40,000 bases of DNA from Bacteroides sp. f07 (GCF_042854785.1 NZ_BAABXI010000001.1:2795656-2835655); one strand, 5' to 3'; positions 6,973 through 19,162 are shown, counted from the stretch's first letter. Notes: generated by a model from the letters alone, not told the origin. Program-made: numbers and translations.

Positions 6973-7004
6973 GGCTTCCAAACCTATGGAAGCCTTTTTA
7001 TTTA
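6973..7004 (+). terminator. Rho-independent terminator downstream of hicB
   Basis: GGCTTCC (6973-6979), an 8-nt loop, then GGAAGCC (6988-6994), followed by TTTTTATTTAT. Confidence 0.7.
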
Positions 7005-7136
7005 TCTCTTCACGGCACCAATAGCCAAACCTTTTCAATCCAAATGTTCTATATTTAAGATTACAGTAAAAAGCAGTTGCTCTAAAAAGAATGAAATACA
7101 GAATAAACTGTATAAATTAACGTGAGTTCGATATAA

Positions 7137-7949
7137 TCAGAACATAGCCAGTTGCCCGTCATTTACAAATTTCACCTCAATGGCGGGTTTCTTTTCAAAG
7201 AAACAATAGGCTGCTATTGCTGACAATGCATTTGCTATGAAGTTATTAAATGAACGATGTCTGGAGTGTTCAATCTGTGCAATGTTCTTCAATTCGTCAT
7301 TGACAGTTTCAATCAGAGCTCTCTTCCTAAGCAATATCTTATCAGCGATACTCATCAAGGAGTTCTTCATATTATTCTTGACCTTAGTAATCGTCTGTAT
7401 ACCATTAAGAAAGAGGTTCTCGAACAAAGTCTGACCGATATATCCCTTGTCCGCACACAATTTTCCCTTTATGTTTTCCAGAAACTTTCCTTGTTTCAAT
7501 GGTTCCCTGTCATCCACATTGCCGGGAGTAAACATAAAATTGAGAATCTCTCCTTTATCATTGATTATCAGATGCAGCTTGAATCCGAAGAACCATCCCA
7601 TAGAGCATCTTCCACGCTCGGCAAGTCCTTCGAAAGTCTTGTGAATCAATATTCGTTGGTTACGGCAGACACGGAAGGGAGTGGAATCGACAAAACTGAT
7701 ACCGGTACAACTGCCTAGCAGAACCTTTTTGATGAAAATGGTCAGAGGGAGAAGTATTTCTTTTTCCAGTTCCACAAAACGATTATAAGACACACATCGG
7801 GGAAACATTGGTATGTGAATATCCCAATTCACCACATTTGCAAGATAGTGTAGTTCATCAGGTTGTGTGAATACAGACAAATTGTTTAAGTCAATGTCTG
7901 GATTTCCAATAATGTAGTCATCCATATATTGTTTTACTTCATCTTTCAT
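7137..7949 (-). CDS. IS982-family DDE transposase (copy probably 5'-truncated or degenerate)
   Basis: The 270-aa ORF carries family motifs VSYNRFVEL, GISFVDSTP, GWFFGFKLHLIINDKGEI, NVDDREPL, ADKGY and IETVNDELKN. The N-terminal ~55 aa are shorter and more divergent than I remember for family members. I found no terminal inverted repeats by eye. Confidence 0.8.
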   Translation of the reverse strand: MKDEVKQYMDDYIIGNPDIDLNNLSVFTQPDELHYLANVVNWDIHIPMFPRCVSYNRFVELEKEILLPLTIFIKKVLLGSCTGISFVDSTPFRVCRNQRILIHKTFEGLAERGRCSMGWFFGFKLHLIINDKGEILNFMFTPGNVDDREPLKQGKFLENIKGKLCADKGYIGQTLFENLFLNGIQTITKVKNNMKNSLMSIADKILLRKRALIETVNDELKNIAQIEHSRHRSFNNFIANALSAIAAYCFFEKKPAIEVKFVNDGQLAMF

Positions 7950-7963
7950 ATTTTATTCATATT

Positions 7964-8019
7964 GACGATAATGGGTTGCAGCTTTCCGCCATTAGGCGGA
8001 ACAAGTGCTTGTTAGTAGC
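7964..8019 (-). repeat. attC-like site R1 (distal end of array, 3' of cassette 12)
   Basis: Plus strand: GACGATAATGG GTTGCAGCTTTCCGCC ATTA GGCGGAACAAGTGC TTGTTAGTAGC. Imperfect hairpin with a CCGCC/GGCGG inner stem. The outer arm TTAGTAGC pairs with GCTACTAA in R2. Confidence 0.8.
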
Positions 8020-8020
8020 A

Positions 8021-8689
8021 TCATTCCATTTTATACATTTTTTTCTCCCAACCTTTTAATTCTTGAAGAACAGGTTTAGGATTTTGCAATATCTGATTTA
8101 GAAATTCTATAAAGTTAGGTGCTAATACTTCCGTTGCAGGTGTTTCGTAATCAAAGAGGACAATTGCACCTTCTTTATTCTCATTATCTGTCAATTTAAG
8201 AGCTATCACGCCATAATCAGAATATTGACCTATCGCAAAATACCCTTTATCAAGAATTTCCTCTTGCAGTTCCTTATTATTTTCAATTAGGATTTTATTC
8301 CATGAATGAATGGGCTTTGGATATAGACGAACATCTAAATCCCAAAACATTTCATAAAAGTGTTTATATTTCAAGTAGGTCTTGTATGAAAGCGGAAGGA
8401 TAACATTTAATTTACTTTCTAATTTGGAAATATCCTCGTCTGAAATTTGATTATCTATCACTTTCCATACATGGTCTTTGTCCGTAATAATGTTCACCAT
8501 ATAATTAGTATGTTCCGGTTGAGTGACATATATCTTAACCGATTTCCCTTGAAGTATGCTATTATCTAACGAAGCCTGCATTTCAGGTTCTATGGGTTTC
8601 TCGTAAAAAGGAACATACATAAGATATTCTCTATGTTCTTTCACAAAGCCCAAGCATTCATCTACATATTTCTTTACTACTTCTTCCAT
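8021..8689 (-). CDS. Cassette 12: SMI1/KNR4 (SUKH-type) family protein, putative immunity protein
   Basis: 222-aa ORF. ISDEDISKLESKLNVILPLSYKTYLKY and a later GYFAIGQYSDYGVIALKL...GAIVLFDYE fit the SMI1/KNR4 pattern. No signal peptide. Confidence 0.65.
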   Translation of the reverse strand: MEEVVKKYVDECLGFVKEHREYLMYVPFYEKPIEPEMQASLDNSILQGKSVKIYVTQPEHTNYMVNIITDKDHVWKVIDNQISDEDISKLESKLNVILPLSYKTYLKYKHFYEMFWDLDVRLYPKPIHSWNKILIENNKELQEEILDKGYFAIGQYSDYGVIALKLTDNENKEGAIVLFDYETPATEVLAPNFIEFLNQILQNPKPVLQELKGWEKKMYKME

Positions 8690-8710
8690 ACTATTTTGTT
8701 TTTTAAATTC

Positions 8711-8764
8711 GCTACTAATTGTTTTCAGCTAATTGTTTTCAGTATTTAGTTGTTTGTTAGACCG
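8711..8764 (-). repeat. attC-like site R2 (degenerate, with 14-bp internal duplication)
   Basis: Plus strand: GCTACTAATTGTTTTCAGCTAATTGTTTTCAGTATTTAGTTGTTTGTTAGACCG. CTAATTGTTTTCAG occurs twice in tandem. The core TTGTTA contains the stop codon of cassette 11. Confidence 0.65.
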
Positions 8765-9065
8765 TTCCTAACTTATCATGTAACCCTGTTTGTGATAATA
8801 TTGAATAGAAATTATCAAATTTCCCGATCAGTTCATTAAAAGATGCGAACTCATATCTTTCGGAGAATAAACAATTCCCTGTTTCGATACTAAGGATTTC
8901 CATAACACAAGAATTATCATCCCATAGTGTTACACGACCTAAATTAGTATCATTATCTATATCAACATACATACTATGTACATAATCCGTATTTTCATGT
9001 ATTGTGTATGTACATGACTGATTATTAATCTGTTCTTTTATATAGGAAATGAATTTTCGTATCAT
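8757..9065 (-). CDS. Cassette 11: small hypothetical protein
   Basis: 102-aa ORF, acidic, no signal peptide. The stop TAA is the core TAA of site R2. The ATG is 8 nt downstream of the 3' end of intron 1. Confidence 0.6.
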   Translation of the reverse strand: MIRKFISYIKEQINNQSCTYTIHENTDYVHSMYVDIDNDTNLGRVTLWDDNSCVMEILSIETGNCLFSERYEFASFNELIGKFDNFYSILSQTGLHDKLGTV

Positions 9066-9114
9066 ATTATTTTATCGAGTAGGTCAGCCCTCTTTCGGGG
9101 GCTTTCCCCTCTAA

Positions 9115-9148
9115 GAACCGTACTTGATAGTTTCCCATCATACGGCTC
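9115..9148 (-). ncRNA. Group II intron domain V (copy 1)
   Basis: The minus strand reads GAGCCGTATGATGGGAAACTATCAAGTACGGTTC. It is 34 nt, with the AGC triad, a 2-nt bulge and a GAAA tetraloop. Confidence 0.9.
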
Positions 9149-9186
9149 AAGCATTTCTAAATTTAATTTTCATAAATTAAACCGGC

Positions 9187-10725
9187 TCAACTTACTTTCC
9201 TAAAAGTTTTCCCATTAGTCAGTTCTCGTTTCGCACAGAGTTTCCACGTAAGATATTCCTGCCATTGCGGGTCAAACGGATTGAGTTTTGCTTTGACCTT
9301 TCTATACCTTAAAATAGGGATGTCGGCTAATTGTTCCAACCTTATCCTTTCTTTGTTATCGGCTTTCTTGAAGTCTGTGGCGAACACCCAGTTTCTCTTC
9401 CCTTCCATTTTAAAATATCTCTCCTTTACCCATCGCCAAGTTTTCTTGTCATGTCTTCTGTGTGCCCACCTTTTGAGTTGTTTCACCAGTATGGTGTCCA
9501 GATCGCTGAACGTCTTCTTGGCGGATACAAATCTAAAGTAGTTGCCCCAACCTCTGAGTACCGGATTTAGTTTCCCGATCAAGTCCTCCTGTTTAGCGAC
9601 TTTATTCTTGAAGACCACTTCATGCGTTTTCTCCACAAACCTCTTGATACTCTTCTTTGAGGGTTTAATCAATACGTTCCTTTTATATCTTCGTATGTTA
9701 TATCCCAAGAAGTCGAACCCTTTAGTGATATGGGTTATCAACGTCTTCTCCTGCGAGAGTTCCAGTCCCCTGACGGCTAAAAAGTCTTTTAAGTCCTCCC
9801 TTATCTGTTCTAGCAGTTCCTTTGTGTCCGCTGAGACAACAAAATCATCCGCATAACGTATGAGATGAACTTTGGTACGGTAACGTTTACCGTTCACGTA
9901 CCTTTCTCTGTACTTCATTAGCAACATCTTTTCCATTCCATCCAGTGTGGCGTTTGCAAGTGTTGGCGATATAATACCGCCTTGCGGTGTTCCAGCCGTT
10001 GTAGGAGTGAGCAACTTGTTAAAGATAGCTCCACATTTCAACCACTTTCTTAGTATCTGCTTGTCGATTGGTACATTATCTACAAGCCATTCATGGCTGA
10101 TATTGTCGAAGCATCCTTTGATGTCTCCCTCCAATACCCACATCGGTGGGTTAGGTTGGTGGCTGAACAATATGTGTATCGCATCTATGGCATCTGCCGT
10201 ACTCCTGTATCTTCTGAACCCGTATGAGTTCGGGTCAGCCATTGTTTCCATTACCGGTTCGAGTGCCATTAGATATAACGCCTGCATTGCCCTATCTTTC
10301 ATGGTGGGTATGCCCAGCGGGCGTTTCTTGCCGTTGCTTTTGGCAATGTACACCCTTTTCAGTGGAAGTGGCTTGTAGCCCCTCCGTCTCAACGAAGCAA
10401 CCGCTTCGAGTTTATGCGCTTGGGTAGTCCATTTGATTTGGTCTACCCAAGCGGTTCTTTTTCCTTTGTTGGAAGTAACCCGTTTTACCGCCAGCGCTTT
10501 TGCGGCAAACGAGGTAGTCAGGATACGCTGCAAGGCTTTCACCTTTGCGTATCTCTTTTCCTTTTGAGCCTTTACAATCCGAGCTTGAAGCTTCCGCACA
10601 GCGGTTTGAAGCTTGTTCCAGTCTATGCTGTTCCAAGCCCCTTTGGGTCTGCTCCTGTGTGAAGACGCACACTTTGTTTTCACTCCGTCCATTTGCTTTT
10701 CTCCATTTAAAAGTTCTTCCTTCAT
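9187..10725 (-). CDS. Group II intron reverse transcriptase/maturase (copy 1)
   Basis: RT motifs RPLGIPTMKDRAMQ, TPQGGIISP and YADDFVV. Maturase X domain LNPVLRGWGNYFRF. No HNH/En domain. The start is uncertain: ATG at 10725 or 10692. The track ORF reaches 10875 by read-through of intron RNA sequence. Confidence 0.9.
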   Translation of the reverse strand: MKEELLNGEKQMDGVKTKCASSHRSRPKGAWNSIDWNKLQTAVRKLQARIVKAQKEKRYAKVKALQRILTTSFAAKALAVKRVTSNKGKRTAWVDQIKWTTQAHKLEAVASLRRRGYKPLPLKRVYIAKSNGKKRPLGIPTMKDRAMQALYLMALEPVMETMADPNSYGFRRYRSTADAIDAIHILFSHQPNPPMWVLEGDIKGCFDNISHEWLVDNVPIDKQILRKWLKCGAIFNKLLTPTTAGTPQGGIISPTLANATLDGMEKMLLMKYRERYVNGKRYRTKVHLIRYADDFVVSADTKELLEQIREDLKDFLAVRGLELSQEKTLITHITKGFDFLGYNIRRYKRNVLIKPSKKSIKRFVEKTHEVVFKNKVAKQEDLIGKLNPVLRGWGNYFRFVSAKKTFSDLDTILVKQLKRWAHRRHDKKTWRWVKERYFKMEGKRNWVFATDFKKADNKERIRLEQLADIPILRYRKVKAKLNPFDPQWQEYLTWKLCAKRELTNGKTFRKVS

Positions 10726-11347
10726 TTTGTAAAGAAACACCAGGCAGAAGTCAGCCTGCTTTCGCAGCGGGATAATGTCACCTTGCTTGTCACGCAGGCA
10801 TTGGCTCAATCCCGTATCCTCCCTCATTACAAGGGTGGCATTCGCTTTTTCCACCATCTCATACCCGCATACCATTCGGCTTTACTTACGTTCGGCTTAC
10901 CTGTCATTCATGGCAGGAGATATACGGGCTTACCAAGTTTCGCCCTCCAACTTACGGACGGATTAGGGTCTGTCCATCTGCCGACGGTGCTTTGTCCGTG
11001 TAACCCTCACCAAAAGAAAGGTTATCCGACCGTTTACCATTTTGGTCAAGGCTCGCCAGCATCTTGAGCCTTTCATTAGTCACGACAGTTCCCGACAGTT
11101 CAATTAATTTACCCATACCGTCCAGCTTAGCCCCTTAGTCGCCTGATGCTGGCGGCAGTTGATTCCCCTCACGGTTCTGTCTTCCCTTGCGGCGGGTTCG
11201 TTGTCGAACAGCTTCACACAACGTCATTGCTGGTGATGCATGTGTTCCAAGCTACTGCTGACGGAACAGCAGGTTCAGACAGCCTGTTTTCAACCCGTGA
11301 AATGGGTGCTGAACAATTAAGAGAGGCGACTTGCTTGTCGCACCTCA

Positions 11348-11407
11348 GTTGCTAATGGGTTGCAGCTAATCGCCATTTTAAGGCGATTGAGGTGCATGTT
11401 GTGTTTA
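11348..11407 (-). repeat. attC-like site R3 (occupied by intron 1)
   Basis: Plus strand: GTTGCTAATGGGTTGCAGCTAATCGCC ATTTTA AGGCGATTGAGGTGCA TGTTGTGTTTA. The ORF-proximal core is degenerate (TTGTG instead of TTGTTA; 1-nt deletion). Confidence 0.75.
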
Positions 11408-11427
11408 TTCCTTGCAATTTTAAGAAT

Positions 11428-11766
11428 CTATTCAGTAGTAATATCAAAATCTTGTTTATTTCTCCATGCTATCCTAAGATAATCACCTCTTATTAAACCT
11501 TTATCACGGTAATATCTAACTATTTCAGAGGGCGACCAATCCTTGCCATTGGAAAATAATGTTCCGATTTCTATTAACTTTTGAAAAAGAACTGCACGCT
11601 TTTCAACATCATCAGTAGGCATAGAAATAGAATAGTATGGTTCTACTTTTTCAAATCCAAGACTGATAAGTTCATTCTTAAAATTGTCATTATTATTAGC
11701 TATCAATATATTATTTCCTGCCAATTCAATAGCAACGACTTTATCTTTTAATTTTTCATTCATCAT
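11428..11766 (-). CDS. Cassette 10: small hypothetical protein
   Basis: 112 aa from ATG 11766 (MMNEKLKDK...). The track ORF starts at a GTG at 11775 that lies inside site R4. Confidence 0.6.
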   Translation of the reverse strand: MMNEKLKDKVVAIELAGNNILIANNNDNFKNELISLGFEKVEPYYSISMPTDDVEKRAVLFQKLIEIGTLFSNGKDWSPSEIVRYYRDKGLIRGDYLRIAWRNKQDFDITTE

Positions 11767-11768
11767 AT

Positions 11769-11825
11769 TAAACACTAATGTGTTTCAGCTAACTGCGTTT
11801 AGCTGTTTAGGTGATTGTTATGTGC
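11769..11825 (-). repeat. attC-like site R4
   Basis: Plus strand: TAAACACTAATGTGTTT CAGCTAA CTGCGT TTAGCTG TTTAGGTGATTGTTATGTGC, with a perfect 7-bp stem. The cassette 9 ORF reads through the core and stops in the loop. Confidence 0.75.
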
Positions 11826-12167
11826 CTTATTGTTCTCCTCTTCTATTTTCATAAGAAATATTTCTTGCAAATCGCCACTTATTATTTTACCGTTTAGAGT
11901 TAATTCAAAAAATCCTTCTTGTTCGGCAAAGGATGATACATTATCCAGTTTGGCAAAAACATTAGATAGGGTATCTGTCATAACTAAACGCACGAAAGTT
12001 TTTAGCTCTTTTCGCTGTTTTTCATTCAACTGGCTATATAACTCTTTACTATCATTCCAAGGCTCATAACCACCTTCTATTGATGGAGTATTTAGAGTGT
12101 TGAAATATCGACTTAAGTTATCCATTATTTCTTTTTTTAATGAATTGACAAATTCTACATCATTCAT
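11799..12167 (-). CDS. Cassette 9: small hypothetical protein
   Basis: 122-aa ORF, acidic, no signal peptide. Its 3' end overlaps site R4. Confidence 0.6.
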   Translation of the reverse strand: MNDVEFVNSLKKEIMDNLSRYFNTLNTPSIEGGYEPWNDSKELYSQLNEKQRKELKTFVRLVMTDTLSNVFAKLDNVSSFAEQEGFFELTLNGKIISGDLQEIFLMKIEEENNKAHNNHLNS

Positions 12168-12186
12168 ATTTTTCCATTTTTAAGTT

Positions 12187-12244
12187 GCACATAATGTCCG
12201 GCAGATAATCGACTATTAAGGTACTTTATCTGTTTGTTAGCAAT
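12187..12244 (-). repeat. attC-like site R5
   Basis: Plus strand: GCACATAATGTCCGG CAGATAA TCGACTATTAAGGTACT TTATCTG TTTGTTAGCAAT. The core TTA (12237-12239) is the stop codon of cassette 8. Confidence 0.8.
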
Positions 12245-12551
12245 CTAATTCATTTCCGTTTAATAATTCTATATCTCCTAATGCTTTATATTCCCTGTCC
12301 AAATCTTCTTTTGTGAATAGGTAATAATTGTCCTCAAATCTTGGCATATCATAGCCTTTTACAAAAGATAAGAAAGAGAATATTTCTGCATCTATATCTA
12401 TACCTTGATTATCCTTGTTATCCAAAGCAAATAATAGATTATCAGCTTTCATCGAAATTCTATTTCTAATACCTTCTACATTATATTCTTCATTATCAGG
12501 TAACTCTTTAAGTATCTGATAGAAGTTTATTATCTGTTGTTTTACTTTCAT
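12237..12551 (-). CDS. Cassette 8: small hypothetical protein
   Basis: 104-aa ORF, acidic. The stop codon is embedded in the R5 core. Confidence 0.6.
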   Translation of the reverse strand: MKVKQQIINFYQILKELPDNEEYNVEGIRNRISMKADNLLFALDNKDNQGIDIDAEIFSFLSFVKGYDMPRFEDNYYLFTKEDLDREYKALGDIELLNGNELDC

Positions 12552-12568
12552 TCATAATTTGTTTAGTG

Positions 12569-12624
12569 ATTGCTAATGGGATGCAGCTTGCCGCTGTTAG
12601 GTGGCACAGGTGCTTGTTATAAGC
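12569..12624 (-). repeat. attC-like site R6
   Basis: Plus strand: ATTGCTAATGGGATGCAGCTTGCC GCTGTTA GGTGGCACAGGTGC TTGTTATAAGC. The stem has one bulged base and one C:C mismatch. Confidence 0.8.
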
Positions 12625-13091
12625 TAATTTTCGTATTCAATCTTGTAATCTTCATATACATTGAATACAGTTTCACAATCAGATAAAATACTTTCAAGCA
12701 AAGGTTTGACCTCACTATTCCAATCCAACTTACCCAAACCTGCACCTATTTTCGGGAGCGACACAGTTTTAATACCTCTGCTTTCGCATACTTTTTTCAA
12801 GCGTTTCAAGCCTTTATTCAGATATGTAAGTTCTGCATGATACATATCCGGTTGTGTAGCGATGTAGATTATACCCGGAGAGAAACCTTTGATTTCTCCT
12901 ATAAACATATCACCTGCTTGAAACTTGGTGTTTCGTGTGTACTTCTTAAAGAGTTTTTGGATTTCAGGGAATTGACTTGATAGCTTAAAGGCAAGCCCAG
13001 TTCCTAATCCTTCTTGTGAGCCAACAGCCACACCTTGCGCTATGTACTCATCTTTGCTTTGCAATATATCTCCCGAAATGTATTTTATCAT
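12624..13091 (-). CDS. Cassette 7: macro-domain (ADP-ribose-binding/hydrolase fold) protein
   Basis: 155-aa ORF. MIKYISGDILQSKDEYIAQGVAVGSQEGLGTGLA..., a later KTVSLPKIGAGLG and a small size fit stand-alone macrodomain proteins. Confidence 0.6.
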   Translation of the reverse strand: MIKYISGDILQSKDEYIAQGVAVGSQEGLGTGLAFKLSSQFPEIQKLFKKYTRNTKFQAGDMFIGEIKGFSPGIIYIATQPDMYHAELTYLNKGLKRLKKVCESRGIKTVSLPKIGAGLGKLDWNSEVKPLLESILSDCETVFNVYEDYKIEYEN

Positions 13092-13111
13092 ATTGTTTCC
13101 GTTTTTCTGTT

Positions 13112-13170
13112 GCTTATAATAGGTTTGTGAATAACTGACCGTTAAGGCAGTTCATTCGCTTGTTACCAAT
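13112..13170 (-). repeat. attC-like site R7 (same subfamily as R12)
   Basis: Plus strand: GCTTATAATAGGTTTGTGAATAACTGACC GTTA AGGCAGTTCATTCGC TTGTTACCAAT. In the cassette-sense strand the stem GAATGAACTG/CAGTTATTC has one extrahelical G. Confidence 0.8.
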
Positions 13171-13173
13171 ATT

Positions 13174-13461
13174 TCAATCTCCACTTACCCAAATTGTGTT
13201 TTTATCTATTATCATAGGACGCAAATTCTTAACGAACTCTATTATAATTTTCATTGATTGTTTATCCGACGTCTTTATATAATCATTTGCCAAATTAATA
13301 AGTAATTCAAGATTTTGAGGTATCAATCTTGTATCTCCATATTCATCAATACTCAATCCTGTCTTTACATGAAACTGCAAGAAGACGGGTTGTAATATTC
13401 TCAATTCAACATCATTCAAAGCGAAGTGATGATTATTCATTGTATTGCTAAAATCTAACAT
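13174..13461 (-). CDS. Cassette 6: small hypothetical protein
   Basis: 95-aa ORF with no recognisable motifs. Confidence 0.55.
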   Translation of the reverse strand: MLDFSNTMNNHHFALNDVELRILQPVFLQFHVKTGLSIDEYGDTRLIPQNLELLINLANDYIKTSDKQSMKIIIEFVKNLRPMIIDKNTIWVSGD

Positions 13462-13476
13462 TTCAATTATTTGTTT

Positions 13477-13532
13477 ATTGGTAATGGTAGCTAACCGACC
13501 TTTACGGGGAGGTTAAGCCGCTTGTTACCTGC
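13477..13532 (-). repeat. attC-like site R8
   Basis: Plus strand: ATTGGTAATGGTAGCTAACCGACC TTTAC GGGGAGGTTAAGCCGC TTGTTACCTGC. The cassette-sense stem GCTTAACC/GGTTAGC has one extrahelical T. The core TTA (13525-13527) is the stop codon of cassette 5. Confidence 0.8.
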
Positions 13533-13860
13533 TTTTTCGAGTTATTACAATATCATCAAAACTTAATAGCAAAGACTGACCGTTTGGTCTATATTCCTTC
13601 CAATCTTCAATGTCGGGACTTTCATAATCCATCATTATATGATAAAAGGAGTAAAGACCGAAATTTTCTTGAGGTAAGTCCGGCAGACTATGTATGTCAT
13701 AACATCCAACACCTTCCAATCCTTTTTCTTCAATCCGTTTTAACCATCCTAAAGCCTTATCTATTTGTTGAAGATAGGGAAGTTCCTGTTGATTGCCATG
13801 CTTCAAAGCATCAACAGTTTTTATTCGTTCTTTTTGTAATAACTCAATTATATCTTTCAT
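13525..13860 (-). CDS. Cassette 5: small hypothetical protein
   Basis: 111 aa from ATG 13860 (MKDIIELLQKE...). The track ORF extends to 13950 only because intron domains V/VI happen to be open in frame (MLEPYDGKLSSTVLRGG...). Confidence 0.6.
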   Translation of the reverse strand: MKDIIELLQKERIKTVDALKHGNQQELPYLQQIDKALGWLKRIEEKGLEGVGCYDIHSLPDLPQENFGLYSFYHIMMDYESPDIEDWKEYRPNGQSLLLSFDDIVITRKSR

Positions 13861-13910
13861 TTTATTTATCGGATAGGTCGGAGGCATTGCTGCCCCTTTC
13901 CCCCCCCTAA

Positions 13911-13944
13911 GAACCGTACTTGATAGTTTCCCATCATACGGCTC
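13911..13944 (-). ncRNA. Group II intron domain V (copy 2)
   Basis: Identical 34-nt GAGCCGTATGATGGGAAACTATCAAGTACGGTTC on the minus strand. Confidence 0.9.
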
Positions 13945-14021
13945 AAGCATTTCTAAATTTAATTCTCATAAATTAAACCGGCTCAACTCGCTTTCCTTGA
14001 GGTCTTTCTCTTAGTCAGTTC

Positions 14022-15536
14022 TCATTTAGCACGGAGTTTCCACATCATATATTCCTGCCATTCGGGGGCGAACGGGTTCATTTCTGCTTTAACTTTCCTA
14101 TACCTTAAAATAGGGATGTCGGCTAATTGTTCCAACCTTATCCTTTCTTTTTTATCGGCTTTCTTAGAGTCTGCGGCAAAGCCCCAGTTTCTACGCCCTT
14201 CCGTTTTGAAATATCTCTGTTTCACCCATCGGCGGCTTTTCTTGGGATGTCTTCTGCTTGCCCATCTCTTGAGTTGCCTTACCAAGATGGAGTCCAGATT
14301 GCTGAACGTCTTCTTGGCAGATACAAACCTAAAGTAGTTTCCCCATCCTCTCAGTACGGGATTGAGCTGCATAATCAAATCCCCCTGTTTGGCGGTCTTG
14401 TTCCCGAATATAACCTCGTGAGTCTTTTCCACAAATCTTTTCACGCTCTTCTTTGCGGGTTTTATCAATATGTTCTTTTTGTATCGGCGTATATTGTAAC
14501 CCAAAAAGTCAAAGCCCTCGGTGATATGTGTAATCAGCGTTTTCTCCTCCGATAGTTCCAGCCCCCTGACGGCTAAGAAGTGTTTCAAGTCCTCTTTGAC
14601 TTGTTCCAGCAGTTCCCTTGTGTCAGCTGATACGACAAAGTCATCCGCATAACGTACCAAATGGACTTTGGGGCGATATCGTTTTCCGTTCACGTATCTT
14701 TCCCTGTACTTCTTTAGCAACATCTTTTCCATTCCGTCCAACGTGGCGTTCGCCAACGTCGGCGATATAATGCCACCTTGCGGTGTCCCTGCCGTTGTGG
14801 GGGAGAGTAACTTGTTGAAGACCGCTCCGCATTTCAGCCACTTCTTTAATATCTGCTTGTCGATTTGTACATTATCCACAAGCCACTCGTGGCTGATGTT
14901 GTCAAAGCACCCTTTAATGTCTCCCTCCAGTACCCATTGTGGCGGGTTAGGCTGGTGGCTGAACATTATATGCAGCGCATCTATGGCGTCCGCTGTGCTT
15001 CTGTATCTTCTAAACCCGTATGAATTCGGGTCTGCGGTCGTTTCCGTCACAGGTTCGAGAGCCATCAGATATAATGCCTGCATTGCCCTGTCTTTCATGG
15101 TGGGTATGCCCAACGGGCGTTTCTTGCCATTGCTCTTGGCGATGTACACCCTTTTCAGTGGAAGTGGCTTATAGCCTCTCCGTTTTAACGAAGTTACTGC
15201 TTCGAGCTTTTGCGCTTGGGTAGTCCATTTTATATTGTCCACCCCTGCGGTTCGTTTCCCTTTATTGGAAGTGACACGTTTGACTGCCAGCGCTTTCGCA
15301 GCAAACGAGGTAGTCAAGATACGTTGCAAGGATTTTACCTTGTTGTATCTCTTTTCCTTTTGAGCCTTTACAATCCGTACCTGAAGCTTTCGCACAACAG
15401 CTTGTAGCTTGTCCCAGTCCATACTGTTCCAAGCTCCTTTCGGTCTGCCCCTGCGTGAAGATGCACACTGTGTTTTCACTTCGTTCATTTGCCTTTCTTC
15501 ATTTAAAAGTTCTTCATTCGTTTTGTAAAGAAACAC
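14022..15536 (-). CDS. Group II intron reverse transcriptase/maturase (copy 2)
   Basis: 504-aa ORF that aligns with copy 1 throughout. I counted about 60 substitutions in about 470 aligned residues by hand, with no frameshifts. YADDFVV and the X domain are intact. An alternative start is ATG 15488. Confidence 0.9.
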   Translation of the reverse strand: MFLYKTNEELLNEERQMNEVKTQCASSRRGRPKGAWNSMDWDKLQAVVRKLQVRIVKAQKEKRYNKVKSLQRILTTSFAAKALAVKRVTSNKGKRTAGVDNIKWTTQAQKLEAVTSLKRRGYKPLPLKRVYIAKSNGKKRPLGIPTMKDRAMQALYLMALEPVTETTADPNSYGFRRYRSTADAIDALHIMFSHQPNPPQWVLEGDIKGCFDNISHEWLVDNVQIDKQILKKWLKCGAVFNKLLSPTTAGTPQGGIISPTLANATLDGMEKMLLKKYRERYVNGKRYRPKVHLVRYADDFVVSADTRELLEQVKEDLKHFLAVRGLELSEEKTLITHITEGFDFLGYNIRRYKKNILIKPAKKSVKRFVEKTHEVIFGNKTAKQGDLIMQLNPVLRGWGNYFRFVSAKKTFSNLDSILVRQLKRWASRRHPKKSRRWVKQRYFKTEGRRNWGFAADSKKADKKERIRLEQLADIPILRYRKVKAEMNPFAPEWQEYMMWKLRAK

Positions 15537-16148
15537 CAGACGGAAGTCTGCCTGTTTTCACAGTGGAATGATGTCGCTTCGCTATTTTATATTATGTATG
15601 GCTACGCTCAATTCCTATCCTCCCTCATTACAAGGGTGGCGTTCGCTTTCTCCATCCTCTCATACCCGCATACCGTTCGGCTTTACTTGCGTTCGGCTTA
15701 CCTGCTGTTCATGGCAGGAGATATACGGGCTTACCAAGTTTCGCCCTCCAACTATCGCCCGGGTTAGAGCCCGTCCATCTGACGGCGGTGCTTTGTCCGT
15801 GTAACCCTCACAACAAGAAAGGTTATCCGACCGTTTACCATTTTGGTCAAGGCTCGCCAGCATCTTGAGCCTTTCATTAGTCACGACAGTTCCCGACAGT
15901 TCAATTAATTTACCCATACCGTCCAGCTTAGCCCCTTAGCCACCTGATGCTGGCGGCAGTTGATTCCCCTCGCGGTTCTATCTTCCCTTGTGGCGGGTTC
16001 GTTGTCGAACAGCTCCACACAACGTCATTGCTGGTGATGCATGTGTTCCAAGCTACTGCTGACGGAACAGTAGGTTCAGACAGCCTGTTTTCAACCCGTG
16101 AAATGGGTGCTGAACAATTAAGAGAGGCGACTTGCTTGTCGCACCATT

Positions 16149-16206
16149 GTTGCTAATGTCCAGCGGCTAACTGACTTTTCAGAAGTTAAGCCGTTTGTTA
16201 TCAGTC
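16149..16206 (-). repeat. attC-like site R9 (occupied by intron 2)
   Basis: Plus strand: GTTGCTAATGTCCAGCGGCTAACTGAC TTTTC AGAAGTTAAGCCG TTTGTTATCAGTC. The cassette-sense stem CGGCTTAAC/GTTAGCCG has one extrahelical T. Confidence 0.8.
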
Positions 16207-16212
16207 ATATTT

Positions 16213-16584
16213 TTATTCAGAGCTTTTATATTTACTATATTTCTCAATCCATCCCTCTTGAGAATATAATTCACCACACAATCCATCAGATATGTCAGCC
16301 AAAGATGTCACATCTTTTTCTGAATTAGAAATCTTCCAATCATCAATATCTTGTTCAAAAAAGAACAGAGTATTATGAATTGTGGAATCCACCATTTTAT
16401 AGACTATTTGCCTTATGAGTTCTACATCTTCATTTTTAAGGTTATTTATGGCTTCATGTAGTTTCCGGTCAGATGTACTTTTCATGTGCCCTGAAACAGT
16501 TCCTTCAAAAACAAATAAGCTATTATCCCTTACGCTTTTGACGAAATCTTTTCCAAATTGATTTAGTATTTCTTTTGTTTCCAT
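16213..16584 (-). CDS. Cassette 4: small hypothetical protein
   Basis: 123-aa ORF, acidic, no signal peptide. Confidence 0.6.
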   Translation of the reverse strand: METKEILNQFGKDFVKSVRDNSLFVFEGTVSGHMKSTSDRKLHEAINNLKNEDVELIRQIVYKMVDSTIHNTLFFFEQDIDDWKISNSEKDVTSLADISDGLCGELYSQEGWIEKYSKYKSSE

Positions 16585-16598
16585 TTTATTTCTTTTTT

Positions 16599-16654
16599 GA
16601 CTGATAATGTTTGGCAGCGTGCCGCTTTAAGCGGTGTGCTGTTTGTTAGCAACC
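16599..16654 (-). repeat. attC-like site R10
   Basis: Plus strand: GACTGATAATGTTTGG CAGCGTGCCGC TTTAA GCGGTGTGCTG TTTGTTAGCAACC. On the plus strand the stem holds three G:T wobbles. On the cassette-sense (minus) strand these same positions are A:C mismatches. The cassette 3 ORF reads through the core and stops in the loop. Confidence 0.8.
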
Positions 16655-17028
16655 TCTTTAATACTAACGTCTCCCAACACTACAATATAAGAGTTGAAGG
16701 TCATTCCATTCACTTCTTCTTCATCTCCGTCAGCCTTAACAAGACTTTTAAGAAGGCTTGAAACTGGAACTAATAATTGAGGATTGTCGGTCGATGATTT
16801 ATACTTTGTATAAATCGCATTTATTTGATGGACTGTTCCTTGTAGAGTAAGTAGTCCGTCACTTGTTTCATAATGCGCATCGTAGATATATTCTATTGTT
16901 TGGGTGATGTCAGTTAATGTTTTATTAAAAGCAAAAACATCCCATTTAACCATATCGCCTATGCTGAATGGTTGACCGCAACATTGCATCTGCCATCCTT
17001 CATAAAGTACTGTACAATATGTTTTCAT
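16627..17028 (-). CDS. Cassette 3: small hypothetical protein (EGWQMQCCGxPF motif)
   Basis: 133-aa ORF. The N-terminal Cys-rich motif YEGWQMQCCGQPFSIGDMVKW recurs, as I recall, in uncharacterised small proteins. The 3' end overlaps R10. Confidence 0.6.
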   Translation of the reverse strand: MKTYCTVLYEGWQMQCCGQPFSIGDMVKWDVFAFNKTLTDITQTIEYIYDAHYETSDGLLTLQGTVHQINAIYTKYKSSTDNPQLLVPVSSLLKSLVKADGDEEEVNGMTFNSYIVVLGDVSIKEVANKQHTA

Positions 17029-17044
17029 ATCTTTTATTTTTATT

Positions 17045-17101
17045 GGTTGCTAATGGTTTGCAGCTAATCGCTTTCAGTACGATTAGCCACATGTTATCGG
17101 C
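17045..17101 (-). repeat. attC-like site R11 (looks like an unoccupied intron target)
   Basis: Plus strand: GGTTGCTAATGGTTTGCA GCTAATCG CTTTCAGTA CGATTAGC CACATGTTATCGGC, with a perfect 8-bp inner stem. The left half is nearly identical to R3. Confidence 0.8.
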
Positions 17102-17108
17102 ATATTGA

Positions 17109-17480
17109 TTATTTAATGATAGTCAAATCTCCATCTACAAATCCCACTGCGATATGTTCTACTTTAAAAAGTTTTAAATCAGTAAGATCCTTGATTAAAT
17201 CTTTGAGGATAGGTGCAACAATTTCTAACACTTCTTCCCATTTTAGATTGCCTGAGATTTCAAAATCAGGACAACTCCTTTGAGTTGGTTCAAAACTTTC
17301 ATCACATGCCCAATCTTCATCCTTTTCATCAAACCAAGTAGAGCCGACCATTTCTATGCCATAAGGTTCATAAAGATTAAAGCTCAAAGCCACAATATCA
17401 GAAGGCAATTCTTCTGTTTTATCAATATTGACAATCCATTTTTTGATAATTTCCTTTAAATCATTCGTTTTAGTATTCAT
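17109..17480 (-). CDS. Cassette 2: small hypothetical protein
   Basis: 123-aa ORF, very acidic, no signal peptide. Confidence 0.6.
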   Translation of the reverse strand: MNTKTNDLKEIIKKWIVNIDKTEELPSDIVALSFNLYEPYGIEMVGSTWFDEKDEDWACDESFEPTQRSCPDFEISGNLKWEEVLEIVAPILKDLIKDLTDLKLFKVEHIAVGFVDGDLTIIK

Positions 17481-17514
17481 TTTTCTTCCTATTAAAAATT
17501 AAACATTTTATTAA

Positions 17515-17572
17515 GCCGATAATGGTTTGTGAATAGCTGACCATTAGGGCAGTTCATTCACTTGTTATTCGC
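17515..17572 (-). repeat. attC-like site R12 (same subfamily as R7)
   Basis: Plus strand: GCCGATAATGGTTTGTGAATAGCTGACC ATTA GGGCAGTTCATTCAC TTGTTATTCGC. Confidence 0.8.
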
Positions 17573-17575
17573 ATA

Positions 17576-18202
17576 TTATTCCTGTTGCCAATATGGGTGC
17601 AAAGCTGTTTCAGCTTTGAAATTCGGGATGTTAAATTCATAAATCCAATCAAGGCGAGTCCAAATGCCAGAGTTTTCACCGACCATAAGCATCCTTTCAT
17701 TACAAAAAACAGCTTCCATTTCATAAGGGCGACGACCAATTTCAAAGTTCATAACTATAAACCGAACAGGGGATTTCTCTTGCTTTGGAATCACAATAGA
17801 ATTGCATTGAAAAACCGATTTAGCTTGTTTACCTATGGACTTGTTGTTTTTACTCATTGCTTCAATAGCTTTCTTTGCGTTTCTTGATACCACCTTTGGA
17901 TTGTAACCTGGACCATATTGGGGGTTGATATCAGCAGGCAATAAGTTCATTTGCCTTGATAGCTTTACAAGTCCCTCGATAATCATCTCTTTTATATTCA
18001 TTGGGTTGATTTTACAAAACTCTTCCCATGCGGCAAGTTGTTTTTCTGTAGGAGAATTTTCATCCCCGACATCAAACCACGCAACAAAATCCCCGTCCAA
18101 AGAATTTATGTTAATTGAATGTTCGGTTTCATATAATCCAAGTTCTCCAATTCTCCAAAATTGGGGATTAAAACTTGATATGTTATTTATTGTTTTAGTC
18201 AT
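17576..18202 (-). CDS. Cassette 1: hypothetical protein
   Basis: 208-aa ORF, the first after the recombinase. No signal peptide and no recognisable motifs. Confidence 0.6.
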   Translation of the reverse strand: MTKTINNISSFNPQFWRIGELGLYETEHSININSLDGDFVAWFDVGDENSPTEKQLAAWEEFCKINPMNIKEMIIEGLVKLSRQMNLLPADINPQYGPGYNPKVVSRNAKKAIEAMSKNNKSIGKQAKSVFQCNSIVIPKQEKSPVRFIVMNFEIGRRPYEMEAVFCNERMLMVGENSGIWTRLDWIYEFNIPNFKAETALHPYWQQE

Positions 18203-18214
18203 TTTCTTTCCTTT

Positions 18215-18266
18215 GCGAATAACGTTATGCTAACAGCGGTCATTTAATGTTTCGCTGTTATTTTTT
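18215..18266 (-). repeat. First site of the array (attI-like position, between recombinase stop and cassette 1)
   Basis: Plus strand: GCGAATAACGTTATGC TAACAGCG GTCATTTAATGTTT CGCTGTTA TTTTTT, with a perfect 8-bp stem. In cassette sense the junction core reads ACGTTATTCGC, with G rather than A before TTA, unlike the other sites. Confidence 0.65.
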
Positions 18267-18278
18267 CTAAGTATTTTA

Positions 18279-18719
18279 TTAAATCTCTTCTTCTAAAATA
18301 TCGTCCAACGGACTTTTAATTTTGCTTTTGTAAGTGTCTGCAATATGGACGTACATCTCTGTTGTCTTAATATTTTCATGCCCCAACAGTTCTTTTATGA
18401 TTTTCAAGTCCGTTCCTTGTTCTATTAAATGTGTAGCGAACGAATGGCGGAACAAGTGGGGATATACTCTTTTTGTTATACCTGCTTCATGGGCTATCTC
18501 TTTCAGTTTTTTGGAAACGATACTTTCAGAGAATTGTACTCCGGCTTCACGTTCAAAAAGCCACTTTTCCGACTGATATGCTATCCTATATTCTTCCAGT
18601 TTATTGATAAACGGTTTGGATAGCAGCGTATATCGGTCTTTCTTCCCCTTCCCCTTTCCCTGTCGCACATGTATCAGTGAACAGGAAATGTTTATATCAT
18701 CCGGTTTTAAATTCAGCAT
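18279..18719 (-). pseudogene. Tyrosine recombinase, C-terminal catalytic half only (XerD-like; N-terminal half missing)
   Basis: The 146-aa ORF starts just after where the box-I Arg should be (MLNLKPDDI...). It keeps GKGKKDR, HLFRHSFATHL, LLGHENIKTTEMYVH and the C-terminal IKSPLDDI. Only about 50 aa lie between KDR and GIT, so the IntI-specific extra domain is absent. The upstream sequence is closed by stops in the same frame. Confidence 0.8.
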
Positions 18720-18761
18720 TATGTTAATTCATTTTCTTATCTACTTAATGACAATATTGGG

Positions 18762-18769
18762 CAAATTTA
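18762..18769 (-). promoter_or_regulatory. Candidate -7 promoter box upstream of recombinase remnant and array
   Basis: The minus strand reads TAAATTTG (TAnnTTTG consensus) about 43 nt upstream of ATG 18719. I saw no clear -33 TTTG. Confidence 0.3.
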
Positions 18770-19050
18770 CGCTATTTCCTTCTATTCTCTATTCTGATTT
18801 TCATCACATACATTCTGATAACTCATCAATATCGGTATAACGTCCCTAAAATACGGTTTTATTTCATCACCCACAAAAAAGCTGTTAGTTTTTTCCTCTA
18901 TCCTATAAAATAGTCTCTCTTGACTGGCAATTGCACAATGATCTGTTACATAATTCATAACTATACAATGATCAGTCTCCTATTCTCAGCATTTATAAAT
19001 GCCACTATGAGATCATTGCCGTTCATCGATTTCACCTGATTGTCGAAATA

Positions 19051-19080
19051 CCGATGAATAAGGAGATAGCGGGTGAAAGC
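19051..19080. repeat. Inverted repeat, left copy (core)
   Basis: The reverse complement of CCGATGAATAAGGAGATAGCGGGTGAAAGC matches 19395-19424 at 28 of 30 positions. Weaker similarity extends to roughly 19028-19122. Confidence 0.85.
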
Positions 19081-19162
19081 AAGTGGTAAATTCAAGTAAA
19101 ACTGAACATCAGCGGTTTCACCCTGTCTTTTCAAAATATCCCTTGAGCTAAAACAAATATCA

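Follow-up and report, generated by a model that had tools for sequence, protein, structure and literature searches.

The closest described relatives of the locus studied here are the rAID-1 arrays of Bacteroidales, in which a XerD-family recombinase is accompanied by integron-like intergenic repeats (Ross et al. 2019, bioRxiv 10.1101/471110); an earlier name was 'polyimmunity loci' beside XerC/D recombinases (Zhang et al. 2012, PMC3482391). Such arrays are reported from more than half of the Bacteroidales genomes sequenced, and the immunity genes that they carry, which protect against type VI secretion toxins, from nearly every surveyed human gut metagenome. The mechanism of rAID biogenesis was still called open in a 2025 preprint (PMC12247911), and integron surveys list almost nothing in Bacteroidetes (PMC9024848). 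The locus class is already known and its motifs have been described; in the published rAID-1 accounts we found neither cassette boundaries nor cassette-specific complementary arms, and no attI junction or point of crossover was given there. We found no published description of the cassette-site anatomy (arms, R stem, attI junction and TTA crossover).

Here, we analysed a window of 40,000 nucleotides from Bacteroides sp. f07, which carries at 8012-18222 an array of 12 cassettes whose ORFs are all co-oriented, the ORF sense being the minus strand. GC content is 0.32-0.38 in the array windows (introns left out) versus 0.42-0.50 in the flanks. The 12 intergenic sites are homologous to one another. 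Read in ORF sense, one cassette consists of TTA and six cassette-specific nucleotides, an immunity-type ORF, and six complementary nucleotides followed by TAA, after which its 3′ end is completed by C, an imperfect hairpin of about 36-41 nt and A. The cassettes and the distal end of the array are as follows (arms in ORF sense, start arm / end arm).

17523..18222, minus strand: cassette C1, site 17520-17567, arms TTATTCGCA / TGCGAATAA, ORF 17576-18202 (208 aa)
17054..17522, minus strand: cassette C2, site 17051-17096, arms TTATCGGC / GCCGATAA, ORF 17109-17480
16608..17053, minus strand: cassette C3, site 16605-16648, arms TTAGCAACC / GGTTGCTAA, ORF 16627-17028 (DUF6578)
16157..16607, minus strand: cassette C4, site 16154-16200, arms TTATCAGTCA / TGACTGATAA, ORF 16213-16584
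13485..16156, minus strand: cassette C5 (exception), site 13482-13527, start TTAGCAACAATG followed by an intron and the native body, end GCAGGTAA, ORF 13525-13860 (111 aa)
13120..13484, minus strand: cassette C6, site 13117-13165, arms TTACCAATA / TATTGGTAA, ORF 13174-13461
12577..13119, minus strand: cassette C7, site 12574-12619, arms TTATAAGC / GCTTATAA, ORF 12624-13091 (Macro/DarG-like)
12195..12576, minus strand: cassette C8, site 12192-12239, arms TTAGCAATC / GATTGCTAA, ORF 12237-12551
11779..12194, minus strand: cassette C9, site 11776-11820, arms TTATGTGC / GCACATAA, ORF 11799-12167
11356..11778, minus strand: cassette C10, site 11353-11401, start TTAGTGTTTA, end TAAACAC-AAC (1-nt deletion), ORF 11428-11775
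8719..11355, minus strand: cassette C11 (exception), site 8716-8759, start TTAGCAACTGAG followed by an intron, decayed end arm GGTC--TAA
8757-9065, minus strand: ORF of C11, TriTu immunity protein (Pfam TriTu 2.1e-28)
7972..8718, minus strand: cassette C12, site 7969-8014, arms TTAGTAGC / GCTACTAA, ORF 8021-8689 (SUKH/SMI1-KNR4 immunity family)
7137..7971, minus strand: distal array end, with a 13th cassette-like start TTATCGTC at 7964-7971 that runs into a DDE transposase ORF
7137-7949, minus strand: DDE transposase ORF (DDE_Tnp_1_3 2.3e-68)

Other contexts of the array-end cassette start and its transposase were sought among the fetched loci, and none was found. The cassette proteins are of immunity type (TriTu, SUKH/SMI1-KNR4, and a Macro protein with a sub-threshold DarG match), and a DUF6578 protein is also present. 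The locus is best assigned to the rAID-1 arrays, with immunity-type genes in one orientation downstream of a truncated Xer-like tyrosine recombinase. The rAID-1 definition asks for at least two co-directional downstream genes with a GC content of at most 41%, which the window provides in its 12 co-oriented cassette ORFs, and for toxin-immunity-related genes and conserved intergenic motifs, both of which occur in the array. The window shares with described rAID-1 loci a Xer-like tyrosine recombinase at the 5′ end, co-oriented short low-GC orphan immunity genes (TriTu, SUKH and others) and conserved intergenic motifs 'reminiscent of integrons'; moreover, the locus of Paraprevotella clara YIT 11840 (L031), a species named by Ross et al., carries the site type of the window. 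Unlike them, the window has a truncated recombinase, cassettes broken by two group II introns, and an array that ends in a transposase gene.

The original prediction held that cassette termini are reverse-complementary in 10 of the 12 cassettes, and every start/end pair that it tabulated proved correct in ORF sense. Perfect self runs including the TTA were found in 9/12 cassettes, extending over 8 nt in C2, C7, C9 and C12, 9 nt in C1, C3, C6 and C8, and 10 nt in C4; the ends of C10, TTAGTGTTTA and TAAACAC-AA, mismatch only by a 1-nt deletion. No match appeared when the start and end arms of C5 and C11 were compared in the window. The proposed permutation of self against non-self arms gave a summed identity at positions 4-9 of 56 for the true pairing, versus 28.2 ± 4.7 (maximum 49) for permuted ones, and 0 of 200,000 permutations reached the observed score; mean identity was 4.67/6 for self pairs and 2.14/6 for non-self pairs. 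The further claim that arms are unique to each cassette was partly borne out: they are cassette-specific overall, but TTAGCAAC-type arms recur in C3, C8 (TTAGCAAT), C5 and C11.

The complementarity is general. An HMM built without the arms, used to find sites in other loci, returned 248 sites in about 50 loci, every one on the recombinase/ORF strand. In a set of 113 distinct, independent cassettes of other genomes (about 50 loci), self arms formed Watson-Crick pairs in 88-92% of cases at positions 4-8 (27-50% for non-self arms). The rate dropped to 75% at the ninth position and 41% at the tenth and then to background (~28%), indicating a sharp extent of 9 bp; all four pair types were present among the self-arm pairs. 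Perfect self runs of at least 8 nt occurred in 70% of 120 cassette clusters, versus 1.6% of non-self pairs, and a family-wide permutation over these clusters gave a sum of 603 versus 266 ± 13, with 0 of 20,000 permutations as high. The likeness that had been drawn to the TTRRRY start and RYYYAAC end of integron cassettes is therefore apt, with each start complementing the inverse core of its own site in 10/12 window cassettes and as the prevailing pattern in the sets of 113-120 cassettes. Within cassette clusters, arm changes were scarce and mostly uncompensated, with 2 compensatory double changes versus about 8 genuine single ones, and thus do not demonstrate ongoing selection for pairing; the arms could be an inheritance from cassette birth.

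When circle junctions were reconstituted, they folded into a two-tier hairpin, with z scores of -3.5 to -5.4 for nine bottom-strand junctions and -1.1 to -5.4 for top strands. The site combines an outer R stem and a bulged inner stem with an unpaired spacer, spans 44-49 nt, has an ATTA core and shows covariation. In a consensus fold of 40 sequences, hand-thinned from a random 60 and with 8 junctions of non-matching arms left out of the helix-1 figures, 94.6% of cells were paired versus 73.1% in shuffles, and the covariation score was 0.65 versus 0.24, with 0 of 500 shuffles as high; the unbiased rates of arm pairing are the position-wise figures from the 113 cassettes given above. Of 88 junctions, 76 were more stable as the bottom strand, which is antisense to the ORFs (Wilcoxon p = 4e-14). 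On this strand, the basal pair of the outer stem is an invariant T·G, and G·T pairs, which are C·A mismatches on the ORF strand, occur at inner pairs in up to 16/40 sequences.

Arms and hairpin travel with the ORF. As the original prediction had required of homologues elsewhere, C1, C2, C5, C6, C7, C8, C10 and C11 were found in other arrays with both of their own arms and the 3′ hairpin kept, and these eight stood beside other neighbours or in first position. Homologues of C1 (72% identical) in L021, L022 and L004 keep its arms beside other neighbours, and C7 likewise has other neighbours in L002, L004 and L100; C8 is followed in L004 by a cassette other than that of the window. C2 opens the array in L048 and is internal in L031, and C6 comes first after attI in L021 and is internal in L042, in each case with unchanged arms. 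The C10 homologue in L043 is a first cassette with an intact end, AAACACTAAC, and the C11 homologue is the first cassette in L001, with arms TTAGCAACC / GGTCGCTAA. In 53 pairs from 24 clusters with differing upstream neighbours, the upstream site was 65% identical and the cassette's own downstream site 93%. The 3′ site moves together with the ORF upstream of it. Identity between arrays breaks at [A/G]↓TTA (the arrow marks the junction). The crossover had been placed immediately 5′ of the TTA, with which these breaks are consistent, but it can be positioned only within [A/G]^T^T^A^N.

At the recombinase side, the cassette series is closed by an attI-like junction at 18220, next to which the following features lie.

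18223..18270, minus strand: attI-like site, in ORF sense ...AATAACAGCGAAACATTAAATGACCGCTGTTAGCATAAC-G↓TTA, then the first cassette
18279..18719, minus strand: recombinase remnant of 146 aa, the C-terminal catalytic half of a Xer-like tyrosine recombinase (Pfam Phage_integrase 7.8e-28)

In 34 other loci, the attI block is constant up to ATAAC[G/A] and is followed by many different first-cassette starts, which begin with TTA, but with TTC in 5/34 loci. The base before the TTA is G in 20 loci and A in 14, a mixture that would not be predicted by a fixed cleavage point with a single attI sequence. An attI beside the recombinase gene, as in integrons, is thus found in these 34 loci, and homologues of C2, C6, C10 and C11 lie directly after it elsewhere, which points to insertion at this site.

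The recombinase remnant is 96% identical to the 238-aa protein P0002, and about 290 bp encoding the N-terminal 92 residues are deleted relative to the syntenic locus L001, as judged by tblastn and a reading of L001. Without this N-terminal half, recombination here cannot be cis-encoded, and the cassettes of the window are probably immobile in the absence of a recombinase acting in trans. The remnant is also 71% identical to P0013 over 145 aligned residues (P0013 residues 108-250), and P0013-type recombinases (91%) head arrays in species named as rAID-1 examples, such as P. clara YIT 11840. Its matches to the NCBIfam models for XerA, XerC and integron integrase all fall below the cut-offs; the integron integrase model TIGR02249 is matched by the remnant only at 238-314, and for the full-length relative from L021 (372 aa) it gave 204 bits in 2 stretches against a cut-off of 265. 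Members of the family carry the catalytic motifs R..KGxKDR..HxLRH..H..Y; they also end in ...IKSPLD, a C-terminal tail like that of IntI, and are extended at the N terminus. The L021 relative aligns with VchIntIA (2a3v) in two blocks, between which its residues 272-286 (15 aa) face IntI4 184-241 (58 aa), and the alignment to XerA (PDB 5hxy) is continuous (6.6e-39). The IntI-specific insertion (I2 helix region, between KGxKDR and HxLRH) was sought in the L021 relative and is absent. The locus would therefore be integron-like in its working but is not a member of the integron family. In integrons, the IntI insertion contacts extrahelical bases; recognition of a folded site by a recombinase without it must therefore differ from that in integrons, if it occurs at all.

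Both exceptions to the arm rule contain a group II intron in ORF orientation.

13868..16144, minus strand: group II intron copy 2, 12 nt after the A↓TTA crossover, in C5; RT/maturase ORF 14022-15536
9074..11343, minus strand: group II intron copy 1, 12 nt after the crossover, in C11; RT/maturase ORF within 9187-10875

Rfam scores were 101 and 96 bits for group-II-D1D4-7 and 68 and 64 bits for Intron_gpII, the intron ORFs have RVT_N/RVT_1/GIIM domains, and the ends read 5′ GTGCG and 3′ ...CGAT, with exon junctions checked against intron-less copies; the ribozyme domains, RT/maturase ORF, 5′ GUGYG and 3′ AY of bacterial group II introns are accordingly present. The introns always lie 12-13 nt downstream of CATTA, in the 5′ UTR of the next cassette. 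In C5, the first 12 nt are foreign and joined through the intron; its eight intron-less copies start with TTACCTGCTAAG and end with GCAGGTAA, a perfect match, and the C4-side junction of C5 is also joined via an intron to a C7 body in L109. The swapped 5′ end of C5 is explained by homologous recombination between copies of the intron, each lying 12 nt into a different cassette. In C11, a deletion has shortened the end arm by 2 nt, and the deviation of both cassettes from the rule is best read as later, secondary damage. Group II introns at a fixed cassette position would act as portable homology that reshuffles cassette ends. The group IIC-attC introns of integrons likewise are group II introns with an RT/maturase at a fixed position beside hairpin recombination sites, but they insert in the bottom strand, antisense to the cassette genes (PMC3001079), whereas the window introns, group II by Rfam, are in sense orientation.

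We put the probability at about 85% that the locus is an integron-like rAID-1 cassette array from a gut Bacteroides, with the halves of a hairpin site at the cassette ends and circular cassettes recombined at the TTA by a Xer-like recombinase. Together, the two 9-nt arms would make up the outer stem (R box) of one recombination site, each supplying half of it, and this stem is contiguous only in the closed-circle cassette. The Xer-like tyrosine recombinase encoded just upstream of the arrays, as the putative catalyst, would exchange strands at the conserved TTA, with the junction A↓TTA where two cassettes meet and either G or A before the TTA at the attI-like site; the bond cleaved would be one of those at this core. 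Strand exchange there would lead to excision of cassettes as circles and their re-insertion, with the first position preferred; a model with a circular intermediate is the simplest. As in integrons, the folded bottom strand would probably serve as the substrate.

A Xer/dif-like recombination of duplex DNA, by two sequential strand exchanges, would also produce circles, with the arms as inverted half-sites of a duplex core and no folded single strand. The array recombinase has its best overall sequence similarity to Xer enzymes (XerC/D and archaeal XerA), aligning continuously with XerA/XerC/XerD and lacking the IntI insertion; the attI junction TAAC-G-TTA is a compact duplex palindrome, and its G/A dimorphism might reflect exchange of either strand. 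Xer enzymes themselves act on a single duplex dif, where they resolve chromosome dimers, and are not tied to cassette arrays with hairpin sites. Against the duplex reading, the arms lie about 40 nt apart in the circle junction, compared with 6-8 bp in duplex core sites, the sequence between them is an imperfect hairpin with covariation, and a duplex substrate would not select for the strand asymmetry of the pairing (T·G, G·T, bottom strand in 76/88), which together make this explanation improbable.

Strand asymmetry also bears on the idea that arms and hairpins act in RNA, processing, stabilising or terminating cistrons and being carried along as UTRs, with homologous recombination between repeats varying the arrays. 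All cassettes are indeed co-transcribed one way, with hairpins in intergenic UTRs and arms in 5′ and 3′ UTRs, but the better structure forms on the strand antisense to the mRNA, where G·T corresponds to a C·A mismatch in the transcript. Breakpoints fall exactly at the invariant TTA and not at variable positions of the repeats, the same cassettes occur directly beside attI, and homologous recombination between 44-49-nt sites of 65% identity would not yield such precise junctions; we regard this account as very improbable. Least credible of all is a cassette that is a miniature transposon, its terminal inverted repeats (TTAxxxxxx ... xxxxxxTAA) moved by a transposase such as the array-end DDE enzyme. 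Terminal inverted repeats are a hallmark of DNA transposons and the DDE transposase ORF abuts the array, but these repeats differ between cassettes apart from the TTA, so no single transposase could recognise them. Target-site duplications are absent, every insertion has the same orientation and the same position, either within an existing site or at attI, and the conserved partner of the arrays is a tyrosine recombinase, not a transposase.

The integron-like reading rests on a close parallel. Both systems have promoter-less single-gene cassettes in an array beside a tyrosine recombinase gene and attI, cassettes ending in an imperfect palindrome of similar build (R stem outside, unpaired spacer, inner stem with bulges), the start/inverse-core complementarity described above, and a crossover beside a conserved TT. 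First-position insertion and selection of structure on the bottom strand, suggested here by the folding and G·T evidence, would be further shared traits. In contrast to integrons, the window-type recombinase has 15 aa where VchIntIA has 58 and scores below the integron-integrase cut-off, and its gene is co-oriented with the cassettes in the rAID-type array. The window sites are short, their downstream core is ATTA and not GTTRRRY, which places T·G instead of C·G at the stem base, and their R stem varies over 6 bp, compared with 4 in integrons. The cassette-specific arms, 9-bp R stem, attI junction and TTA crossover provide a concrete, testable model of the recombination substrate and product.

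We lean slightly towards the view that rAID-type arrays are a second integron-type lineage of gene capture that surveys have missed, in which a Xer-like recombinase reads folded bottom-strand hairpins without the IntI domain. The odds are likewise just above even that this lineage takes in further arrays of Bacteroidota whose recombinases are 38-50% identical; among those we examined, two (Paludibacter and Microbacter) have sites of about 125-145 nt with the pattern xxxxxTAAC...G↓TTAxxxxx. Cassette capture in integron style would then not be bound to the IntI clade or its hallmark domain, and annotation tools requiring IntI and a canonical attC could consequently overlook many arrays, a large class of medical relevance. 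If a second lineage exists, the integron mechanism would have evolved twice or would predate the IntI insertion, and gut Bacteroidales would build their anti-T6SS immunity repertoires by true cassette capture.

The tandem array spans 7969-18270, with every ORF on the minus strand, and is accompanied or interrupted by the following features:

18279-18719, minus strand: C-terminal catalytic half of a tyrosine recombinase, 146 aa (Pfam Phage_integrase, 7.8e-28)
between the recombinase ORF and the first cassette: attI-like sequence, ending ...GCTGTTAGCATAAC-G and followed directly by TTATTCGC
13868-16144, minus strand: group II intron (Rfam, with an RT/maturase ORF)
9074-11343, minus strand: group II intron (Rfam, with an RT/maturase ORF)

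On the plus strand, each of the 12 intergenic sites has the form arm'-TAA-T-[36-41 nt]-G-TTA-arm, which becomes arm'-TAA-C-[hairpin]-A-TTA-arm in the sense of the ORFs; the arms are the short, cassette-specific start and end sequences. The GC content of the array is 0.32-0.38, compared with 0.42-0.50 in the flanks. Immunity-type cassette products include TriTu, SUKH/SMI1-KNR4, a DarG-like Macro domain and DUF6578, and several products have no family match. The ORF of cassette C7 (12624-13091) encodes a stand-alone Macro domain resembling the N-terminal ADP-ribosyl-glycohydrolase half of the DarG antitoxin (NCBIfam NF048014, 2e-20, under the model's cut-off), and its product may confer immunity against an ADP-ribosylating toxin. 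Past the last site, at 7137-7971, a 13th cassette-like start (TTATCGTC) is fused directly to a 270-aa DDE_Tnp_1_3 transposase ORF, whose first ~45 residues may stem from a disrupted cassette. A search of 6000-8100 revealed no terminal inverted repeats of an IS, and the fusion occurred in no other context among the fetched loci.

The original prediction held that the two ends of a cassette are reverse-complementary in 10 of the 12 cassettes. Every row of its table of starts and ends is right when read in ORF sense, and the complementarity was confirmed: nine cassettes carry perfect runs of 8-10 nt including TTA/TAA. The count of ten stands as these nine together with C10, whose end arm lacks 1 nt, while C5 and C11 break the rule. 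Summed over the six variable positions, identity was 56 for self arms and 28.2 +/- 4.7 (maximum 49) for permuted pairings, and the self sum was reached in 0 of 200,000 permutations.

A genome scan with a related recombinase as the query returned 80 loci, and the same site type lay downstream of the recombinase in gut Bacteroidales loci from Alistipes, Bacteroides, Parabacteroides, Phocaeicola, Prevotella, Paraprevotella, Odoribacter and Butyricimonas. Site detection by regular expression and a folding-energy filter picked up many false hits within coding sequence and was superseded by an iterated nhmmer profile, which spans TAAC...ATTA only and leaves the arms out. With this profile, 248 sites were located in some 50 loci, every one on the recombinase strand; the 199 cassettes that they delimit fall into 120 sequence clusters. 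Of the cluster representatives, 70% had a perfect self run of 8 nt or more, versus 1.6% of non-self pairs, and none of 20,000 permutations reached the self-arm sum. The self-arm pairs include all four pair types, and non-self arms were paired at 27-50% over positions 4-9.

Watson-Crick pairing of self arms by position
Position 4: 89%
Position 5: 92%
Position 6: 88%
Position 7: 89%
Position 8: 89%
Position 9: 75%
Position 10: 41%
Positions 11-18: ~28%, equal to background

Because pairing drops after position 9-10, the outer stem is a defined 9-bp element consisting of TTA and six cassette-specific bases. Compensatory arm changes within clusters were also considered as proof of selection, and this line was dropped since there were only two compensated events. 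At 13032-13079 of locus L020, a tandem cassette duplication sets a cassette's own start right after its own site, and this forms a natural complete palindromic site (TGCACATAAC...ATTATGTGCA) within a linear array. Recombinases 90-91% identical to the query P0013, each accompanied by the same attI block, are present in eight genera or more, namely those listed above (L020-L042), which would imply recent horizontal spread of the whole platform.

The arms moved with their cassettes. When the same cassette had different upstream neighbours (53 pairs, 24 clusters), the upstream site was 65% identical and the cassette's own downstream site 93%, and the 10-nt start arm was shared in 81% of the pairs; with different downstream neighbours (41 pairs, 27 clusters), the own site was 92% identical. 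Elsewhere, eight of the 12 window cassettes recur next to other neighbours and keep the same arms, in agreement with the expectation that both arms travel with the ORF. C5, C7 and C8 had other neighbours and unchanged arms; C6 and C10, likewise with the same arms, are the first cassettes of L021 and L043, respectively; C2, again with the same arms, is first in L048 and internal in L031; 72%-identical homologues of C1 carry identical arms; and C11 is the first cassette of L001. Identity between contexts stops on the 5′ side at an invariant motif, between its [A/G] and its TTA, and on the 3′ side past the hairpin, between ...A and TTA. These limits define a cassette as TTA-arm...arm'-TAA-C-hairpin-A, the same layout as in integrons. 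C6 is preceded by G at attI in L021 and by A at its internal position in the window, so the base before TTA is not part of the cassette. Strand exchange is predicted to fall within [A/G]^T^T^A^N.

At the attI of 34 loci, a constant block ...AATAACAGCCAAATCGGCTGATAGTATAAC (..ATAAC) is followed by G in 20 and by A in 14, and then by TTA (TTC in 5 of the 34) and many differing cassette starts. The junctions compared were those of L001, L020-L058 and the window (18223). The A form occurs chiefly, not exclusively, in a divergent recombinase lineage. This G/A dimorphism is not predicted by one cleavage point and one attI sequence.

Circle junctions were reconstituted in silico by joining each cassette's own end arm, site and own start arm; the circular product of C1, for example, would read ...TGCGAATAAC-AAGTGAATGAACTGCCCTAATGGTCAGCTATTCACAAACC-A-TTATTCGCAAAGG. 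When the junctions fold, an asymmetric internal loop separates a 9-10-bp outer stem from a bulged inner stem with its loop. For the nine rule-abiding window cassettes, z-scores ranged from -3.5 to -5.4 on the bottom strand and from -1.1 to -5.4 on the top strand. A consensus fold of 40 diverse bottom-strand junctions, hand-thinned from a random 60 minus 8 with non-matching arms, contains 19 pairs, and compensatory changes occur at 14 of these; the thinning involved no selection on the inner helices, and the unbiased rates for the outer stem are those of the positional pairing over 113 cassettes. In this alignment, 94.6% of cells were paired versus 73.1% in shuffles, the covariation score was 0.65 versus 0.24 (equalled in 0 of 500 shuffles), and sliding the partners by 1-3 columns lowered pairing to 28-58%. 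At the foot of the outer stem, the bottom strand invariably has T·G where the ORF strand has C·A, and at inner pairs up to 16 of the 40 sequences have G·T. For 76 of 88 junctions, the bottom strand was more stable than the top strand (Wilcoxon p = 4e-14). This strand asymmetry points to selection acting on the antisense DNA strand in its folded form, and it counts against reading the sites as mRNA hairpins.

Both exceptions to the arm rule have better-matched copies elsewhere. The C11 homologue in L001 has the start TTAGCAACC and the end GGTCGCTAA, perfect but for one mismatch, and the end arm of the window copy has 2 nt more deleted (GGTC--TAA). Eight intron-less copies of C5 begin with A, then TTACCTGCTAAG and AAATAAAATG, and end in GCAGGTAAC, a perfect match; in the window, TTAGCAACAATG and then the intron take the place of the first 12 nt, and the 3′ exon begins exactly at AAATAAA. 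Unlike the IIC-attC introns of integrons, which are antisense and in the bottom strand (PMC3001079), both window introns are in sense orientation, each 12 nt past the cassette crossover. In the metagenome scan, the intron 5′ end was always 12-13 nt past CATTA, with many different native cassette starts upstream. The C4-side junction (TTAGCAACAATC plus intron) is joined to the body of C7 in L109, and in L100 the intron stands behind the native start of C7. Over the initial 300 nt the two window introns are 96-99% identical, and past that point identity is about 85%, a pattern that suggests recombination or gene conversion between intron copies. Homologous recombination of intron copies at equivalent positions in different cassettes would produce hybrid cassette starts, and it offers the simplest reading of the C5 start. 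Alternatively, the 12 nt might have travelled with the intron, by 5′-exon co-conversion or as an intron 'cassette'; we rejected this because one intron family follows many different native cassette starts. A match of each intron's EBS1 to its own 5′ exon was also sought, and no convincing complementary motif was found.

The window recombinase ORF is identical to a 'Bacteroides sp. f07' hypothetical protein. Among its fuller relatives, the closest is P0002 (238 aa, 96% identity) from L001, a syntenic metagenome scaffold that shares the flanking genes and the ~1.1-kb leader and has a different array. Relative to L001 (9994-10286), the window has a ~290-bp deletion that leaves the recombinase without its N-terminal 92 residues; the window recombinase is therefore a remnant, and no N-terminal remnants were found elsewhere in the window. 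It also has an extra Gly-Lys (GKGKGKK vs GKGKK), and the 238-aa L001 recombinase is itself shorter than the 372-aa ORF of B. oleiciplenus (L021). The ORF-free leader upstream of the remnant (18720-19840, ~1.1 kb), conserved in L001, contains a 93-nt imperfect inverted repeat (19030-19122 and 19353-19445, 71% complementary) enclosing three 22-bp tandem repeats (19249-19322). This repeat structure might be an invertible or regulatory element.

The full-length L021 recombinase aligned continuously with XerA (5hxy; 6.6e-39) but in two blocks only with VchIntIA (2a3v), where 15 of its residues face 58 of IntI4, the region that holds the IntI-specific domain. An intact recombinase is present, for example, in Bacteroides oleiciplenus YIT 12058, Paraprevotella clara YIT 11840 and B. 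fragilis NCTC 9343. It scored 204 bits against the integron-integrase model, whose cut-off is 265. Recombinases from Paludibacter, Microbacter, Maribellus and Flavobacterium, 38-50% identical to the query, also lack the IntI insertion. The recombinase's C-terminal ...IKSPLD tail resembles that of IntI; the array differs from integrons in that its recombinase gene is co-oriented with the cassettes and its sites are 44-49 nt long with a downstream ATTA core. The locus works like an integron, but one defining feature, the IntI-specific domain, fails. In Bacteroidetes, IntegronFinder 2.0 reported next to no integrons (PMC9024848). In its overall picture, with a Xer-like recombinase, short immunity genes of low GC content in one orientation and motifs conserved between the genes, the locus matches the rAID-1 systems described from Bacteroidales (Ross et al. 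2019, 10.1101/471110), which had been noted earlier as polyimmunity loci adjoining XerC/D recombinases (Zhang et al. 2012, PMC3482391). These papers call the intergenic repeats 'reminiscent of integrons', and cassette boundaries are absent from them. A literature search on the rAID recombination mechanism, Bacteroidales attC-like sites and cassette circles found nothing past Ross et al. 2019 and its follow-ups.

These environmental Bacteroidota relatives of the recombinase (L059, L061, L084 and L093) have arrays with longer repeats downstream of it. The sites of L061 and L084 read xxxxxTAAC...(~125-145 nt)...G, followed by TTAxxxxx, and in the few of their cassettes that were checked, starts complement ends (TTAGCAGC/GCTGCTAA, TTAGGCGG/CCGCCTAA and TTAGGGGGC/(A)CCCCCTAA). 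We regard a possible arm rule in these environmental Bacteroidota as a lead.

Taken together, arm specificity and the co-travel of arms with the ORF support the original prediction that cassettes move as circles in the manner of integrons. From these patterns, we infer a circular intermediate, a single-stranded substrate and catalysis by the adjacent recombinase. The rAID-1 class is already named and called integron-like, and we found no description of its site-level anatomy in the literature. This anatomy consists of the points where cassettes begin and end, an R stem of 9 bp that is specific to each cassette, attI, the putative crossover window and the strand asymmetry, and it makes gene capture by rAID-1 arrays directly testable.
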